From NCBI GenBank assembly GCA_021778805.1, contig JAJYBV010000001.1, positions 12,639-76,638 of the forward strand: a DNA stretch of 64,000 nt, read 5' to 3'. This stretch comes from Chloroflexota bacterium (GTDB lineage: Bacteria; Chloroflexota; Ktedonobacteria; Ktedonobacterales; JACDGC01). The position numbers and the translations under genes are program-made. The notes below the pieces were generated by a model that saw only the letters and a program-made list of their open reading frames with translations, was not told the origin of the DNA and searched no databases. This document shows, in pieces, positions 2,339 to 55,106 of this stretch (the stretch's first letter is position 1; each line of letters begins with the position of its first letter).

Positions 2339-2361
2339 TGTTAATGAACTTTAATTATTAA

Positions 2362-2945
2362 AGAGGGACAAGATATACCAGCATAACCGGGGATTCATAA
2401 GGGCGGTAGCCCCTTGCGCGGGGTTTGGGGTGTCCCCAAAAGCTCTTTTTTATAAACAACCACCGCACGGCACACATGGGGATACGTAAGGGGCGGTAGC
2501 CCCTTGCGCGGGGTTTGGGGTGTCCCCAAAAGCTCTTTTTTATAAACAACCACCGCACGGTACACATGGGGATTCATAAGGGCGGTAGCCCCTTGCGCGG
2601 GGGATTGGGGTGTCCCCAAAAGCTCTTTTATTTTAAAATTTCCCCAAAGAAATATTGGTGGCTAGTCAGCAAGGGCGACCGCAAGGGTCGCCCCTACCGG
2701 ATTGCATTGCCTCAGGTGTACCGTGCAGTATTTGTTCAACAACAGGCACTATAAAGCACTCAATGTACTCTGCTCTGTTGATCTTCATCCCGATTAAAAT
2801 ATCAAAGCCCATAATTGTGTGGCTTGTTTCCCCACCTCCACCCATGGGTACCGCGCGGTGGTTGTTCAACAACAGGCACGATGGGGTACTCAATGTACTC
2901 TGCTCTGTTGATCTTCATCCTGATGAAAATATCAAAGACCATCAA
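2362..2945 (+). repeat. Repeat locus II: composite array (left boundary GGGACAAGATATA, 2.7 x 89-90-bp module A, module B hairpin, two ~130-bp right-end units)
   Basis: Module-A units start at 2389, 2478 and 2568. Module B is at 2655-2728. ttgttcaacaacaggcac...actcaatgtactctgctctgttgatcttcatcc.gat.aaaatatcaaag.ccat occurs at 2732-2812 and 2862-2942. Confidence 0.9.
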
Positions 2946-2946
2946 C

Positions 2947-2979
2947 AAAAAAACAGGGGGGAATGTACATTCCCCCCTG
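2947..2979 (-). terminator. Rho-independent terminator of the DoxX gene
   Basis: caggggggaat-gtac-attcccccctg (2954-2979), with an A7 run on the plus strand (2947-2953), which is a U-tract in minus sense. Confidence 0.8.
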
Positions 2980-3020
2980 CGCTGATAGAAATCGCTTTCT
3001 TTTAAACGTTAGTTAAATCG

Positions 3021-11102: not shown

Positions 11103-11546
11103 ATGTCTCGCATGCCAGCGTCATTGCAAACATCCACAAAACCAATTTCCATTGTCATCCTTGATGATGATAAGGCGTTATTGGATTCGTTAACTTACTG
11201 CGTATCGGAAATAGGATATAAGATTGTGCCTTTTGATGAAAACGATATGCTATTCGAGTTTTTTGAACGACACAACACTGCCGATGTCTTAATTTTAGAT
11301 ATCGTTGGCGATCCTTCGCAAAACGGATTGAATGTTTTAGAGGAACTTGAAGAAAAATATGGGGAAAATATTCCCAGAATCCTCATTTCATCCGGTTTGC
11401 CTTACAAAAATTACAGCGGGCATCCCGCATTAAAGAAAGCGCCATTCGTGCATTTCTTGCAAAAACCTTATAATATCGAGCAATTTGTAAACGCTATCGA
11501 TATACTAACACTTCAAAAAAAATCGCATAAACGATCATTTTATTAA
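11103..11546 (+). CDS. Stand-alone response-regulator receiver (REC) protein
   Basis: 147 aa. The acidic pocket is IVILDDD and the phospho-acceptor context is VLILDI. ILISSG and QKPY supply the conserved S/T and K. RBS aaggagg at 11090-11096. Confidence 0.75.
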   Translation: MSRMPASLQTSTKPISIVILDDDKALLDSLTYCVSEIGYKIVPFDENDMLFEFFERHNTADVLILDIVGDPSQNGLNVLEELEEKYGENIPRILISSGLPYKNYSGHPALKKAPFVHFLQKPYNIEQFVNAIDILTLQKKSHKRSFY

Positions 11547-11562
11547 TGCCTTAAACAAACGT

Positions 11563-11596
11563 ATTCCCGCTGCGGCGCGCGGCGGGAATTTTTTTT
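11563..11596 (+). terminator. Rho-independent terminator after the receiver gene
   Basis: The stem attcccgc (11563-11570) pairs with gcgggaat (11582-11589) and is followed by a T-run to 11596. Confidence 0.75.
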
Positions 11597-11711
11597 GCTC
11601 TACACCATACATTACCTGCCGGAAAAATCGGTTTTTTTTATTGGCGCAGATATGTTCGGCATAGAAAACGCAGCACAAACTGCATAGTTCTAATGGTATT
11701 TCCTATTTAAA

Positions 11712-12521
11712 CAGGGACAAGATATATTTCGTAATCAGGGATACGTAAGGGGCGGATGCCCCTTACGCGGGGTTTGGGGTGTCCCCAAAATCTCTTTTAT
11801 GAAAATCTTTCACAGGGCAATATTGATTGCCGAGTGGCAAGGGCGACCGCAAGGGTCGCCCCTACCGGATTGCATGGCTTCATGTGTGACAGCGCGGCGT
11901 ATGCTCTAAAACAAACGATATGTGGCGGCGCTTGGGCTTCGGAGCGATGTAGTCGCCAAGGTGGCCACAAAACGAACACCACACGATGATGAACTTTCAT
12001 TATTAAAGAGGGACAAGATATATTTCGTAATCAGGGATACGTAAGGGGCGGATGCCCATTACGCGGGGTTTGGGGTGTCCCCAAAATATTTTTTTTATTT
12101 TTCCGATGGGAAATATTGGTAGCCGAGCAGCAAGGGCGACCGCAAGGGTCGCCCCTACCGGATTGCATTGCCTCAATGTGTACCGTGCAGTGTATGCTCT
12201 AAAACAAACGATATGTGGCGGCGCTTGTGCTTCGGAGCGATGTAGTCGCCAAGGTAGCCCCAAAACGAACACCACACGATGAATCGTGTGGCTTGTTTCC
12301 CCACCTCCACCCATGGGTACCGTGCGGTGATTGTTCAATAACAGGAACTATGGGATACTCAATGTACTCTGCTCTGTTGGTCTTCATCCTGATGAAAATA
12401 TCAAAGACCATAAACATGAGGAGTTCGTTTTTGTGGTCGCCCTTGCCGCCATCCAGCCACTTGCTTGGCGCCGTTTCTCCGGCGTTATGCGGACATTGTC
12501 AAAACTCACCTGAGTAGTTAC
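11712..12521 (+). repeat. Repeat locus III: ~296-bp composite unit duplicated in tandem, the second copy extended to right-end modules and the CTGAGTAGTTAC terminus
   Basis: gggacaagatatatttcgtaatcagggatacgtaagggg starts at 11714 and 12010. Modules A, B and C follow in the same order in both copies. The E module is at 12331-12412 and the terminus at 12510-12521. Confidence 0.9.
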
Positions 12522-12604
12522 ATGCAGCTTAAGATCTTGCTATATTGCTATTTAACGCGCTACCATGTGAATAATACAATCTGTGAAAGCTGGATAAACA
12601 AAAT

Positions 12605-13312
12605 ATGGCAAACGGCATAGCTGCGTTAGTCGGCGCAGGGGAGTTTTTAAGTGTAAGTGATCCAATTGATATTGAGTTGCTGCAGCATATTGCCGGAACC
12701 GCGCGTGTGGCTATTGTTCCGGCTGCGGCCGCGCCCGATGGCGGTGATTCTCCGCAGCGCTGGGCAAAGATGGGGGTAGATCATTTTACACGGCTTGGCG
12801 CCACTGCGTTTCCTGTTATGGCGTTAACCCGCGCCGATATGCAAAATGAATCGTTTGTGCAACAAATCCGCTCCGCAGATTTTGTTTATTTTTCCGGAGG
12901 CAAACCGCGCTATTTGCTGGAAATACTCGCCGAATCACCTTTTTGGGCAGCAGTAAAAGATATTTTTACTGCCGGTGGCGTTATTGCCGGTTGTTCCGCC
13001 GGAGCCATGGTTATGGCCGAATATATGGCCGATTTTCCCCAAGTATGGAAAACATTGCCCGCACTGGGTCTCGCTAAAAATTTAACAGTAATACCGCATT
13101 TTGATGAACTGCCTCAAGCCATAAAAAGTCCCATCGGCGCTATGCGGCATAAAGGATATATTGCCGGCATTGACGGCTCAACGGCGCTCATCGGTCCCTT
13201 TGAACAAAACGCATGGCGTGTTGTTGGGCGCGGCGCGGTAACTATTTATTCAGCTTCGGGGAAAAATAAGTATGCATCCGGATCTGTTATTCAATTGGAT
13301 GACAAGGAATAA
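12605..13312 (+). CDS. Peptidase S51 / cyanophycinase-like (class I glutamine-amidotransferase-like fold) protein
   Basis: 235 aa. FVYFSGGKPRYLLEIL and GGVIAGCSAGAMVM (nucleophile-elbow Ser) are typical of the S51 family. Confidence 0.55.
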   Translation: MANGIAALVGAGEFLSVSDPIDIELLQHIAGTARVAIVPAAAAPDGGDSPQRWAKMGVDHFTRLGATAFPVMALTRADMQNESFVQQIRSADFVYFSGGKPRYLLEILAESPFWAAVKDIFTAGGVIAGCSAGAMVMAEYMADFPQVWKTLPALGLAKNLTVIPHFDELPQAIKSPIGAMRHKGYIAGIDGSTALIGPFEQNAWRVVGRGAVTIYSASGKNKYASGSVIQLDDKE

Positions 13313-16697: not shown

Positions 16698-16830
16698 TGC
16701 TGGTCTCCTCCTTTCTGACTGATGATGTTCGTTTTCGGAACAATGTTCCCCAATATGACAGCGCAAAAAAATACCCCTGCGCACAGCGCAAGGGCAGATT
16801 ATATATTTAGAATCGTTCCGCATAGAGTGC
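16698..16830 (-). promoter_or_regulatory. Candidate rplJ (L10) leader with a terminator-like attenuator hairpin
   Basis: In minus sense, cccttgcgc-tgt-gcgcagggg (16774-16794) is followed by a T7 run (16765-16771), about 70 nt upstream of the rplJ ATG. A second hairpin, aatcgtccgca...tgcggaacgatt, lies upstream. L10 leaders are known autoregulatory elements, but I cannot confirm homology by eye. Confidence 0.3.
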
Positions 16831-17009
16831 GGACGATTTATGTACATAAACAAACTGCGCCTCGACAGGCAACTCCATGTCATTAAGCTGATAACAGCGC
16901 CTGTGGTCACTGGCATATATTCCGCATTTAGTATATGGCCCAGCGGATATGTTTGTCAAATTTCTGTACAGAAGGTTGCTATTCAGAGGATATTTACAAG
17001 AGCCGCAAA

Positions 17010-17315
17010 GAGGGACAAGATATATTTGCGTATCCCCAAGTTTCGTGGCGCTTTTGCTCCGGCGCGGAATTATTGGTCGTGCGGCCATAAAACGAACACC
17101 ACACGATAAATCATGTGGCTTGTTTCCCCATTTTCACCACCCGAGTTGCCATGGGTAATACTTTAACTTCGGGTAAATTGCAATAAAATCTCAAAATCCG
17201 CGCCGGAACATTGAGGTCATGCAATATTTTTAATAAAATGTATCTGGCAGGCGCCACAATCCCTGCGTAGTGGTTGGAATAGCCGCGAATGGCTGTACCA
17301 ACCACGAGTAGTTAC
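17010..17315 (+). repeat. Repeat locus IV: short variant (left boundary GGGACAAGATATA, module C hairpin, module G, terminus GAGTAGTTAC)
   Basis: gggacaagatata at 17012. aaaacgaacaccacacgataaatcatgtggcttgtttcccca at 17088-17130. gtggttggaatagccgcgaatggctgtaccaaccacgagtagttac at 17269-17315. Confidence 0.85.
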
Positions 17316-17329
17316 GACAGAAGTTTATA

Positions 17330-18607
17330 TTATAAAAAATTCAGCAGCGGGTAGTTTCCTCCCAGCAGCGATGTGGTGTTGGCCTGCGCCCATTTAGTTA
17401 GCACTGTAGCGTACACCGAGCGAAAATCGGTTGAATATACTAAATTGCCGTTGGTGTCTAAGGTACTTAAATCGGGATCAGGGCCATATAATCCGCCTTT
17501 TACCTTAGGGCCAAACACAAACAACGGCGCCGCAGTTCCATGATCTGTTCCCATACCACCATTTTCTTTCACGCGGCGGCCAAATTCGGACCACGTCATC
17601 ATCAACACATTGTTATCCGCGCTGTGCGCATGCAAATCTTGCCAAAAAGCTGCAATTGCGGCCGCTAATTCGGGGTATAACTGCTGCAGTGTTTCTTTGG
17701 CGTTTACATGTGTGTCAAATCCGCCTACAATCACATAGGCCACTTTTACGCCGACGTTTTGTGTAATTGCTCCGGCGACGATTTGCAGCTGCGAGGCAAG
17801 CGCAGATTTCGGATAGGTGATTGCAGGTTTATAAGATGCGTATGCTTTATCAAAATCCGCGGCGGCGCTAACTGTTGTTGCGGAAACCGAGGAAAGAAGA
17901 CCTGAAAGGGTATTTTGCGCGTTCGCTTGCGCAAACGACGTATACAATTGCAATAATAGCGATGTTCGGGTTTGATCTATCGCAGCGCTGGTCTGCGCCG
18001 CAGATTGCAGCTTAAAATTAGCGGCGCTGGCAATCGCCGGAACAGAAAGATTTGGCGCCAGCAGCGCATATGGCAGTTGGGTGCTTGTTTCTATTCCATT
18101 AAGCGGCTGAGACTGCGCGTTCGGCAATGTTGATAAATATTTACCAAGCCAGCCATATTCAGATGAACCTTGCTGCCCCGTCATATCTAACGATTCCCAA
18201 ATATACATCGATTGAAAATGCGATAAAATTGGATCGGGATACCCAACACCCTGCATCACCGCCATATTGCCCGATTCCCATAACGGCTGCAGCGCGCCTA
18301 ATTCTTTATTCAACCCCATCGCGCTGCTGAGCGGAATAACATCTTGCGCTGAAAGCGCTAATGTCGGCCGATTTTGCGCCAGCAAAGGATCGGTGTATGG
18401 CGCCACTGCATATAACCCATCATTTCCTCCTGCCATCTGCACAATAACCAAAATATTGTTGCTTTGCTGTGTTTGCGCCAGTGTTTCCGCCAATACACCC
18501 GCTGGGTACGCGGTATTCAGCATATCTAAGCCCAAGGCGCTTGCCCCAAGCATAAGCAGGCCATTTTTAAAAAATCCCCGACGTGAAGATATCATGCTGT
18601 GCGCCAT
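17330..18607 (-). CDS. DUF1501-family (sulfatase-like) protein with a Tat signal
   Basis: MAHSMISSRRGFFKNGLLMLGASALG is a twin-arginine signal. GGFDTH and TWSEFGRR..NGGMGTDHG are typical of DUF1501. I chose the start at 18607, just after the upstream gene's stop. Confidence 0.8.
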   Translation of the reverse strand: MAHSMISSRRGFFKNGLLMLGASALGLDMLNTAYPAGVLAETLAQTQQSNNILVIVQMAGGNDGLYAVAPYTDPLLAQNRPTLALSAQDVIPLSSAMGLNKELGALQPLWESGNMAVMQGVGYPDPILSHFQSMYIWESLDMTGQQGSSEYGWLGKYLSTLPNAQSQPLNGIETSTQLPYALLAPNLSVPAIASAANFKLQSAAQTSAAIDQTRTSLLLQLYTSFAQANAQNTLSGLLSSVSATTVSAAADFDKAYASYKPAITYPKSALASQLQIVAGAITQNVGVKVAYVIVGGFDTHVNAKETLQQLYPELAAAIAAFWQDLHAHSADNNVLMMTWSEFGRRVKENGGMGTDHGTAAPLFVFGPKVKGGLYGPDPDLSTLDTNGNLVYSTDFRSVYATVLTKWAQANTTSLLGGNYPLLNFL

Positions 18608-36181: not shown

Positions 36182-36583
36182 CTAGTCTAAATTTGCAAAA
36201 ACACGATCGATATGCATATGGATCGATACGCGCTGCTCTTTCATAAAAGCTTCTACTTGGCTTTGCGCCGCTTCGGGGCCATTATAGCGAATAGCCAGCC
36301 GTTTAATATCTTCTTGCGCAACCGCTTGGTTGTCAATTAATTCTGCCTTGCCAACTAAGGTAACAAATCGATACCCTTCTTCTACGCAAAGAGAAATAAC
36401 CGGATTTTTTCGCATATTTTTTTCTTTAACGCGACCAGCCGCAGTATTCATAAGAACCAAGCCATCTGCAATATCGTACCACATAACCGTTTGCTGTGGA
36501 ATATTTGAAGAGCCTATTGTAGCTAAAACACCAAAACGGCGCTCCTGAAGGAACGCCAGAGTTTTTTCATCAAGCAATGCCAT
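36182..36583 (-). CDS. PPOX-class (pyridoxamine-5'-phosphate-oxidase fold), probably F420-dependent oxidoreductase
   Basis: MALLDEKTLAFLQERRFGVLATIGSSNIPQQTVMWY...NPVISLCVEE. It lies immediately upstream of cofD on the same strand. The ORF track start at 36643 is an extension. Confidence 0.7.
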   Translation of the reverse strand: MALLDEKTLAFLQERRFGVLATIGSSNIPQQTVMWYDIADGLVLMNTAAGRVKEKNMRKNPVISLCVEEGYRFVTLVGKAELIDNQAVAQEDIKRLAIRYNGPEAAQSQVEAFMKEQRVSIHMHIDRVFANLD

Positions 36584-36790
36584 GCATGTTACCTGCCGTT
36601 TTATTCGAATAAATGGGAATCTCCCATGTATATCATAGGGCAACGCTGAAAATCATGGCAAATAATGCATGGAGTGCAAGAACGAGTTGTTGCTAGATTG
36701 GAATATTGCTTAAAATAGCGTTTACGGCAACTACCGGAGCCATATAAGAGTTAAAGTATATAGGACTTGAGCATAGAAAGCAGAAGGCGC

Positions 36791-36857
36791 GGAGGCGGCA
36801 TGCCTCCTGACGAAGCCAGAGGTGTCCCCAGATACTGTTTATTCCTTTCCAGTCTCA
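36791..36857. repeat. T-family element copy 2
   Basis: ggaggcggcatgcctcctgacgaagccagaggtgtccccagatactgtttattcctttccagtctcag. It contains the ggaggc/gcctcc hairpin and a GGTGTCCCC core related to module A. Confidence 0.7.
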
Positions 36858-36879
36858 GATTTCTAGTATAAGCAAAATT

Positions 36880-37153
36880 GTAACTACTCAGAAGATAAAG
36901 CCAGGAATGGCTATTCTAACGACAGCGCAGCTGCAACAATCTGAGATTCGTAAGGGGCGGCGCCTGCCCACTGCGCGGGGATTGGGGTATCCCTAAATAC
37001 CTATTTTATATCCAAAGGAACCCTGCACGGTACACCTGAGGCCATGCAATCCGGTAGGGGCGACCCTTGCGGTCGCCCTTGCTGCTTGACTATCAATCCC
37101 GCGCTGTATCTTTTGCTTTATGGAGACCTTGTCAAAATCCCCTGAGTAGTTAT
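36880..37153. mobile_element. MITE-like non-autonomous element (~274 bp) bounded by 11/12-bp terminal inverted repeats
   Basis: The left end is gtaactactcag (36880-36891) and the right end is ctgagtagttat (37142-37153), an inverted match at 11 of 12 positions. The interior holds module G (inverted), a degenerate module A (36944-36998) and module B (inverted, 37023-37085). It has no coding capacity. Confidence 0.55.
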
Positions 37154-37175
37154 GAAAAACTTTATATGTACCTTT

Positions 37176-37251
37176 GCTACGGAATATTCAAAGAACCAAT
37201 TATGGCGTTCCCGCAGGAACGCCAGAGGATTTTTTCATCAAGCAATGCCAT
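37176..37251 (-). pseudogene. Decayed 5' fragment paralogous to the PPOX gene at 36182-36583
   Basis: In minus sense, atggcattgcttgatgaaaaaa(t)cctctggcgttcc... matches the first ~35 nt of the intact gene almost exactly. An indel and an internal deletion follow. Homology ends where the repeat cluster begins (37153). Confidence 0.6.
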
Positions 37252-37327
37252 AGATAAAAACTGCCATTTTACGATATACATGAAAGATTTCCATCTATAT
37301 GGAAAAGAGTCGCAAAAATTATGGCAA

Positions 37328-37924
37328 TTAATGGGCGCTATGCAATAACGCAACGTAAAACGCTGCAAAAACTATTGAAACGATGGCGCCAATAACAAAC
37401 ACAATTACCGCAGGTATAACTACTGTTAAAATTGCCTTTCCTTGCGACAGTTTATGAACCGATTGCGTTGCTAAAACAGCCATATATCCGGCAAATAAGG
37501 CAATTAATAAAGCCGCAAATGTTCCCAAAACAGGAATGATACCTAAAATAGCATCTACAGCAACTACCGGCGCCATAATAAGCGATAAAGTGTACATATA
37601 TGGCAAAAACTGGCCTGTTCCTTTAAAAGCATACACAGCAATAGCCCATAAAATACCAACTCCAATAAAGGCGCCGATAAATTCACCAATAAATGTACTG
37701 AATAATACAGAAACAAAACTAAAAGGGTGAAAAACGGCTGATATAACAGCTGCAACTGCAGCGCCTGCCCCAATAGTAAACAATGCTTCAGTCCAATTAG
37801 CGTTGGCTTGTACAGCATCGAAAGCGGCAACACTGCGTTGGGTATAAACATTGCGGCTGTTGTTCAGCAACACCTGTAACGATTGCTGAAAATTAAATGA
37901 TGTAGTTGGTTGTGGTGTACTCAT
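37328..37924 (-). CDS. Yip1-like polytopic membrane protein
   Basis: 199 aa from MSTPQPT. It has a soluble N-terminus and then about five TM helices. The family assignment is tentative. Confidence 0.4.
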   Translation of the reverse strand: MSTPQPTTSFNFQQSLQVLLNNSRNVYTQRSVAAFDAVQANANWTEALFTIGAGAAVAAVISAVFHPFSFVSVLFSTFIGEFIGAFIGVGILWAIAVYAFKGTGQFLPYMYTLSLIMAPVVAVDAILGIIPVLGTFAALLIALFAGYMAVLATQSVHKLSQGKAILTVVIPAVIVFVIGAIVSIVFAAFYVALLHSAH

Positions 37925-48328: not shown

Positions 48329-48340
48329 TCAATAGCAATA

Positions 48341-48434
48341 GTCGCACTACCGGATTGCGTACCGCGCCGGCAAAACCTCAAGGGATTCGTAAGGGGCAGC
48401 AGCCCCTTGCGCGGGGCTTGGGGTGTCCCCAAAA
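48341..48434 (+). repeat. Repeat locus VI: module-B fragment plus module A downstream of the LysM-SLT gene
   Basis: gtcgcactaccggattgcgtaccgcgc (48341-48367), then gggattcgtaaggggcagcagccccttgcgcggggcttggggtgtccccaaaa (48382-48434). Confidence 0.85.
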
Positions 48435-48538
48435 TATCTTTTATTAAAAAAACTCCGCGCGTCTGCAAAAGCAGCATGATAGCAGCAATATGATACAATT
48501 GGGTTGAAAGCATATTACGCAAAGGAGCGATTTTACAT

Positions 48539-55013: not shown

Positions 55014-55023
55014 CTCATTCAGC

Positions 55024-55106
55024 AGGAGGCGCAAAAAGCAGCATGCCTTCTGACGGGGCGGGGATGTCCCCCGATTCCTTTTATTCCTTGTTTAGGCTGA
55101 GGTCTC
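55024..55106. repeat. T-family element copy 3, downstream of rluD
   Basis: aggaggcgcaaaaagcagcatgccttctgacggggcggggatgtcccccgattccttttattccttgtttaggctgaggtctc. Confidence 0.7.

Follow-up and report, generated by a model that had tools for sequence, protein, structure and literature searches.

A head-to-tail repeat in a Ktedonobacteria intergenic spacer as a probable nest of IS630-derived MITEs

The 1058-bp intergenic spacer at positions 11547-12604 of the window, the whole 64-kb stretch of DNA analysed here, houses a head-to-tail repeat. Judged from sequence comparison, the region is probably a nest of IS630-derived MITEs, in which a complete copy inserted into the palindromic hot spot of an older, resident copy. 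The complete copy is a 427-bp MITE at 11987-12413 that appears to keep both ends of an IS630-family insertion sequence (IS) and carries, where the IS has its transposase gene, a cargo of modules A, B, C and D that is rich in hairpins. This MITE was presumably mobilised in trans by the transposase that a full-length IS630-family element encodes, and would have entered a resident element of which the left part is L1-A-B-C1; we infer that transposition itself took place. Insertion is the most likely history because the boundary between the two copies coincides with a palindrome loop that the family prefers as a target, and the repeat looks head-to-tail because the cargo of the inserted MITE is itself A-B-C. 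Recombination among the shared modules would make the locus variable between strains.

Upstream, the spacer is bordered by a response-regulator gene (11103-11546, + strand), with a strong intrinsic terminator (11563-11589) on its 3' side. The downstream neighbor is a peptidase S51 gene (12605-13312, + strand). Contig DAIEKT010000152.1 of the metagenome-assembled genome (MAG) GCA_027350185.1 has a sequence identical to that of the window. The nearest relative available for comparison is labelled Ktedonobacteria, and the names of protein homologues point to Ktedonobacteraceae or Ktedonobacterales. All of the sequences compared are short-read metagenome assemblies, in which chimerism is possible at repeats.

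The 296-bp repeat and its modules

Positions 11691-12282 consist of two head-to-tail copies of a 296-bp block that are 89% identical, the overall difference between them being 11% of positions. Tandem Repeats Finder reports the interval 11707-12282 with a period of 293, 2.0 copies, 89% matches and a score of 943. Self-BLAST aligns 11699-11989 with 11995-12282 at 89.1% over 293 nt (E = 4e-105). The sequence GGGACAAG begins at 11714 and at 12010, which gives a period of 296, and the spacing is again 296 when the copies are aligned to the IS end, with starts at 11691 and 11987. These results bear out the initial annotation, which read the modules in the same order twice with this period. The order across the spacer is pre-L-A-B-C-L-A-B-C-D-E-F-post. 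Modules D and E (12283-12416), an inverted fragment of B (12431-12449) and CTGAGTAGTTAC (12510-12521) occur only after the second copy, and on this point too the module map agrees with the earlier description, in which the second copy alone ran on into E, the inverted B fragment and the CTGAGTAGTTAC terminus.

The upstream MITE copy, L1-A-B-C1, occupies 11691-11986 on the + strand and is 3'-truncated. Its left end is diverged, the module map gives it no E end, and it stops at ...CACCACACGATGA, the insertion hot spot of the IS/MITE family. The complete copy, L2-A-B-C2-D-E, spans about 427 bp at 11987-12413 (+ strand), and its ends match those of the IS630-family IS. The left terminal inverted repeat, TGATGAACTTTCATTATTAAAGAGGGAC..., lies at 11987-12019 (+ strand) and corresponds to the IS end upstream of the transposase gene. 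The right one, ...TCTTCATCCTGATGAAAATATCAAAGACCAT, lies at 12381-12413 (+ strand) and corresponds to the opposite end of the IS, the one overlapping the stop codon of the transposase. The end sequences of the L...E unit are TGATGAACTTTCATTATTAAAGAGGGA and CCTGATKAAAATAKYAAAGWYCAT.

Both copies carry the same cargo hairpins. Module A, a variable hairpin followed by the invariant CGGGGTTTGGGGTGTCCCCAAAA, was placed by covariance model R1 at 11732-11803 (+ strand, 66.9 bits) and at 12028-12099 (+ strand, 63 bits). The GTAG-tagged, REP-like hairpin of module B was located from exact copies at 11841-11865 and 12134-12158, on the - strand in both. Module F (12417-12521, + strand) is composed of an inverted remnant of the C end (12417-12431) and an inverted half of module B (12431-12449), and ends in CTGAGTAGTTAC.

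The modules are also dispersed elsewhere in the window, at 1262-1333, 2339-2947, 17007-17138, 36937-37153 and 48376-48447. When the spacer is compared with the window by BLAST, modules reappear, variously combined and oriented either way, in five further intergenic regions (1184-1495, 2339-3020, 16940-17330, 36644-37327 and 48329-48538). The cluster at 2339-2947 has the order L-A-A-A-B-E'-D-E, with three A modules and two E modules, and contig L004, from a related-strain assembly, has D-E three times. Copies of the MITE itself are located at 2339-2947, 11691-11986 and 11987-12413, and on contigs L108 and L009.

The parent insertion sequence, the element ends and the palindromic target

Contig L010, from another sample, carries the same response-regulator gene and the same pre-L1-A-B-C1 arrangement as the window. 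After ...CACCACACGATGA it continues with a 1155-bp element and then with module D (TCGTGTGGCTTGTTTCCCC). The element encodes a 350-aa protein that matches Pfam DDE_3 (E = 3e-19) and NCBIfam NF033545, 'IS630 family transposase', with 115 bits against a cut-off of 100. Homologues of the protein are labelled IS630 family transposase by their sources. A second copy of the IS is found at another locus, on contig L108, between a C module and an inverted C module, and its transposase is 99.7% identical. L010 and L108 are from the same population as the window. With a length of 1154-1155 bp and an IS630-type DDE transposase, the IS conforms to the IS630 family, whose elements are about 1.1-1.2 kb.

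Both ends of the MITE can be related to this IS. Module L is the IS end upstream of the transposase gene, with 27 of 27 nucleotides of L2 identical and divergence beginning right after GGGA. Module E corresponds to the other end, the final ~90 nt of the IS with the transposase C-terminus and stop codon, at 71-79% identity. The L...E unit reads as a deletion derivative of the IS, in which the transposase gene is replaced by the cargo A-B-C-D, and therefore as a MITE. A tblastn search of the window with the IS transposase returned a 14-aa C-terminal remnant at 12352-12393 and nothing else.

The initial annotation had proposed a MITE-like unit of roughly 400 bp that began at 12010 and had a truncated copy upstream. 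The unit and its right end near 12412 held up. The left end did not, and is placed at about 11987 instead, because a better inverted repeat sits about 20 nt further out. The proposed terminal inverted repeat, a 15-nt similarity between gatatatttcgtaatcagg and gatattttcatcagg, is present (12017-12035 versus 12389-12403) but subterminal, and its score is attained in 7.5% of cases when the two 40-nt ends are shuffled (p about 0.075). Nor does it recur in the 2339-2947 copy, whose best alignments of the L region with the two E ends score 6 and 8 and fall in other registers. The outer inverted repeat is seen in that same copy, where 2339-2374 (TGTTAATGAACTTTAAT-TATTAAAGAGGGACAAGAT) and the reverse complement of 2911-2947 agree in 25 of 37 positions, a score that 0.8% of shuffles attain. 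For the studied copy, this register (11989-12018 versus 12381-12411) scores 8, which 22% of shuffles reach and which is not significant alone, so the case for this copy is made by homology to the IS ends. The L and E ends are shared with the IS630-family IS and with the further copies.

Duplication of TA is normal for IS630 elements. Every register of the MITE ends was tried for TA or another target-site duplication and none was consistent; the dinucleotides flanking the ends vary, and the flanks are themselves palindromic, which obscures the exact termini. Likewise, TA is not present in a consistent register beside either IS copy (L010, L108), where the palindromic target hides the true ends.

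The target palindrome, CCACACGAT-GA-ATCGTGTGG, is built from the end of C and the start of D. Copy 2 retains it whole (12272-12291); at the end of C1 it is split. At the studied locus it is unoccupied in L012 and L009, which have a single L1-A-B-C1-D-E' unit, and the C1 module of L012 is 100% identical to that of the window. The palindrome holds the IS in L010, at the studied locus, and in L108, at the other locus. In the window it holds L2, and the junction at 11986/11987 is the exact nucleotide of IS insertion in L010. The inverted C-end remnant that opens module F follows the right end of the MITE, just as an inverted C module follows the IS in L108. The unoccupied alleles of L012 and L009 continue as C1-D-E' and not as C1-F; neither represents exactly what the window allele was before insertion.

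The same repeat could also have arisen within a single MITE, by tandem duplication of L-A-B-C through slippage or unequal crossing-over at ATGA and with no second insertion. The start of L and the end of C do share ATGA microhomology at the tandem junction, reiteration is common in the family (as in the 2339-2947 cluster and in L004), and the single unit in L012 and L009 resembles a copy-number polymorphism. This history is nonetheless unlikely. The terminal 27 nt of L2 are those of the IS end, whereas the first 28 nt of L1 are just 70% identical to it, against 100% for L2. Since the two copies share 96% identity over the remainder of L together with A, L2 was not simply copied from L1. Moreover, the copies are 11% apart, yet strains with identical flanking genes vary in copy number, and a duplication has to place its junction at the very nucleotide at which a full IS inserted in L010.

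The sister species provides a comparison of filled and empty sites. A homologue of the peptidase, 91% identical, is found on a 30.6-kb contig of this species (L107, GCA_027459525.1). The contig has the same gene order as window positions 1410-23788 at about 85% nucleotide identity, and the alignment breaks exactly at the repeat clusters. The MITE copy at 2339-2947 (609 bp) is absent from the orthologous site, which has 11 nt in its place, and the break points are the inverted-repeat termini. The 342 bp at 16975-17316 are also missing in the sister species; in the window they are flanked by a 7-bp direct repeat, ACAGAAG, that is single in the sister. At the studied spacer the sister has an unrelated 336 bp, and homology returns at 12521, one base past CTGAGTAGTTA. 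In this comparison the left edge of the studied cluster could not be placed, the spacer having diverged too far on that side for an alignment. For the cluster at 1184-1495 nothing aligned, and the contig edge falls there. A search for the modules in 29 kb of the sister genome found module A alone.

The spacer of the sister species has a short element of its own at about 9745-9870 of L107, with the inverted repeat AGGACTTTCGC ... GTGAAAGTCCT. The same region contains a stretch similar to the diverged L1 end (AGTTCTAACACATTTCTATCTAATTAGGAC). This suggests that an old element occupied the spacer site before the two species split.

The hairpin modules carried as cargo

Module B reads GTAG-GGGCGACC-CTTGC-GGTCGCCC on the minus strand, with the GTAG tag beside an 8-bp G+C stem. 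There are four exact copies in the 64-kb window, against 0 expected. A GTAG tetranucleotide beside a short G+C-rich stem-loop, in multiple copies, is the architecture of GTAG-tagged REPs. Such REPs are known from several phyla, including Chloroflexi, and are often clustered and reiterated with flanking DNA (PMC3733652). The exact 28-mer of module B occurs in 19 metagenome contigs with a G+C content of 0.32-0.67, often in inverted pairs with stem-covarying partners, and its framework is also found in unrelated metagenome contigs and in other Chloroflexota.

In six metagenome contigs with a G+C content of 0.32-0.43 (L090, L095, L097, L099, L100 and L102), half-sites GGGCGACCGCA form arrays with a period of ~20 nt. 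These arrays end in a full GTAG-tagged hairpin, GGGCGACCGCAAGGGTCGCCCCTAC. The organisms are unrelated to that of the window.

The features of module B raise the question of whether the locus is a BIME- or REP-type cluster, in which the hairpins of B, and perhaps those of A, were spread by a RAYT and the flanking DNA was reiterated with them. The tag and stem, 100% conserved in four copies, are in keeping with this, as are the inverted pairs in which the hairpin framework occurs in other organisms and the reiterated GTAG clusters described from Chloroflexi and elsewhere (PMC3733652). The ends of the repeated unit, however, are IS630 ends and not REPs, which leaves this explanation improbable. 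Both full B copies of the cluster have the same orientation, and the inverted one is a half copy only. A BIME/NIME-type mosaic is made of regularly spaced REPs in alternating orientation, and because the REP-like hairpins of the cluster do not alternate, the locus is not a BIME in the strict sense. Across the fetched loci, which cover only a small part of the genome, a screen for the HUH and YxxxNP motifs gave no candidate for a RAYT-like ORF.

Module A, the other cargo hairpin of the MITE, has a layout of ~70 nt: a G-rich leader, a variable hairpin, the invariant CGGGGyUUGGGG-UGU-CCCCAAAA and a pyrimidine-rich tail. Its 23-nt core, CGGGGnTTGGGGTGTCCCCAAAA, is found in more than 73 places among the matches listed, every one of these from Chloroflexota; they come from Dictyobacter isolates, from MAGs of Chloroflexia, Dehalococcoidia and Ktedonobacteria, and from groundwater MAGs. 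Viral contigs, scanned for the same core, gave 0 hits. A hairpin always precedes the core, and its sequence differs by lineage; examples of the arms are CGTAAGGGGC/GCCCCTTACG, GCAAAGGGC/GCCCTTTGC, CCAGGAAGGGC/GCCCGTCCTGG and GCAGGGG/CCCCTGC. In a covariance-model alignment of 78 copies, 7 of 7 hairpin pairs have changes on both sides, and 87% of cells are paired; swapping partners among the sequences lowers this to 73% (0 of 1000 permutations). Mismatches of the G.T type outnumber those of the A.C type by 23 to 10 in the hairpin helix and by 128 to 42 in the purine/pyrimidine flanks. Weak, diverged copies were detected with the covariance model at 55018-55088 (+ strand, 22.2 bits) and 36775-36844 (+ strand, 16.3 bits).

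Two further features of module A were considered and set aside. The outer helix P1 is paired in 72.9% of cases versus 68.6% with mismatched partners, which is mostly an effect of purine/pyrimidine composition. A role as an intrinsic terminator was rejected because the tail is not U-rich in G+C-rich genomes, though a terminator-like pattern does show up in the window. A crude count based on ORFs gave no clear bias in the orientation of module A relative to its neighbors.

Rfam returned nothing but chance matches for 11400-12800 at gathering and permissive thresholds, even at E <= 10. In five further Chloroflexota loci, module A likewise matched no Rfam family. A full-text literature search for the module sequences gave nothing useful.

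The core of module A rides in different vehicles across MAGs, and here the IS630-derived MITE carries it as cargo. Its conserved part is internal and its termini vary, which is the reverse of a plain MITE. Module A could conceivably be an undescribed functional element across Chloroflexota that acts single-stranded, either as an RNA motif or as a recognition hairpin for an HUH-type enzyme, and is carried as cargo by unrelated MITEs from different classes within the phylum, though we hold this only tentatively. It is the sole part of the region that might be new. If module A is functional, it would constitute a phylum-wide nucleic-acid motif, and any wider significance of the region could lie here, in a core and covarying hairpin that travel in different vehicles and have no Rfam match.

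Two such vehicles were seen in other MAGs (contigs L015-L087). In the groundwater Chloroflexi MAG JACPQP01, the core lies in a ~125-nt MITE with 20-nt terminal inverted repeats, TAAGTAGGTCTCGGAAAGTT / AACTTTCTGATACCTACTTA, and TA flanks. The core of JACPQP01 is often duplicated internally at a spacing of 84-89 nt. In the Chloroflexia MAG CAWFFV01, cores occur as inverted pairs around a GCGCCGCC..GGCGGCGC hairpin. Examples from these two MAGs are located at 3653-3815 of L017 and 4120-4222 of L087.

The covarying hairpin of module A, with its excess of G.U over A.C, also bears on a reading of the repeat as two tandem genes for a structured non-coding RNA. The 296-nt unit does fold far better than shuffles (z = -4.2), but the opposite strand folds equally well (z = -4.9), as is expected of DNA palindromes. 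In addition, no Rfam family matches, the modules are found either way round and variously combined, and entire clusters are missing at the orthologous sites of the sister species. Together, these observations make tandem RNA genes very improbable.

Strain assemblies, related systems and neighboring elements

The short-read MAG source, and other assemblies that give different neighbors and module counts for the same flanking genes, could point to a contig looped or misjoined at the repeat, but such an artefact is most improbable because the junction between the C module and L2 recurs in an independent assembly (L003) and the copies differ by 11%, so that no identical repeat was collapsed or looped, and the gene order agrees with that of the sister species.

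Assemblies of related strains (L002, L004 and L009) give differing module counts and neighboring genes for the same flanking genes. These differences reflect either real recombination at the MITEs or chimeric contigs. Because the number of modules differs among strain assemblies, the locus is regarded as a hypervariable transposon nest. In L002 (1-5400) and L009 (6900-12444), from near-identical strains, the differing neighbors are DUF2079, upstream of the peptidase gene, and NTP_transferase, downstream of the response-regulator gene; the break points are inside the MITE nest. A nest of MITEs would make this one intergenic spacer hypervariable among near-identical strains. It also carries a practical warning, as such nests break or scramble metagenome-assembled genomes.

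The studied unit is 427 bp long, is without a transposase gene, has terminal inverted repeats and ends shared with an IS, and is multi-copy with filled and empty sites. In most of its features it thus corresponds to a bacterial MITE of the kind that IS630-family elements mobilise. IS1397 and ISKpn1, of the IS3 family, insert into the loops of REP palindromes. In a similar manner, the IS and the MITE are found repeatedly at the center of CCACACGAT..ATCGTGTGG, in three independent cases. Unlike IS1397 and ISKpn1, the element here belongs to the IS630 family, and its target palindrome is formed by two other repeat modules.

Two described MITEs offer the closest comparison. RUP of Streptococcus pneumoniae is a 107-bp MITE with terminal inverted repeats like those of IS630-Spn1, and Nezha of cyanobacteria is a MITE proposed to be mobilised by ISNpu3-like elements (PMC3049150). 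Like both, the unit in the window is short and non-coding, with termini that match an IS of the same host (for RUP, of the IS630 family), and it is multi-copy, intergenic, strain-variable and presumably mobilised in trans. It is four times longer than RUP. In contrast to RUP and Nezha, it has a variable mosaic cargo (A, B, C, D) with internal reiteration, retains ~90 nt of the transposase 3' end and resides in an uncultured Ktedonobacteria host.

The pneumococcal BOX element has the structure boxA-boxB(n)-boxC (PMC3049150). The studied unit resembles BOX, the BIMEs of E. coli and GTAG REP clusters (PMC3733652) in that it is an intergenic mosaic of modules whose internal units vary in number, with a GTAG-tagged G+C-rich hairpin and blocks reiterated together with adjoining DNA. 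It differs from them in that its boundaries are IS630 ends and its REP-like hairpins are cargo in one orientation. The unit would be an ordinary kind of selfish DNA, though one that carries two conserved hairpin modules as cargo. The process is a known one, and the locus is a well-documented case of it, with a MITE family tied to an IS630-family parent and a preferred palindromic landing site.

A second MITE-like family, with the terminal motif GTAACTACTCAG / CTGAGTAGTTAC, is present in the window at 16975-17316, 36880-37153, about 1205-1390 and 12510-12521. In the copy at 36880-37153 both ends are present (13 of 14 positions matching), and this copy carries modules A and B. It is bracketed by a direct repeat of ~130 nt (36538-36667 / 37204-37333). 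The CTGAGTAGTTAC motif of the second family forms the right edge of the studied cluster.

Two minor features were noted in the surrounding sequence. A scan found a promoter-like site at 12517-12546, upstream of the peptidase gene, consisting of GTTACA-18-TATATT with an extended TG. The -35 hexamer of this site comes from the terminal motif of the element, GAGTAGTTACA. At 16759-16931 (- strand), upstream of the L10/L12 genes, lies a ribosomal protein L10 leader (RF00557), which scores 49.2 bits against a gathering score of 44.
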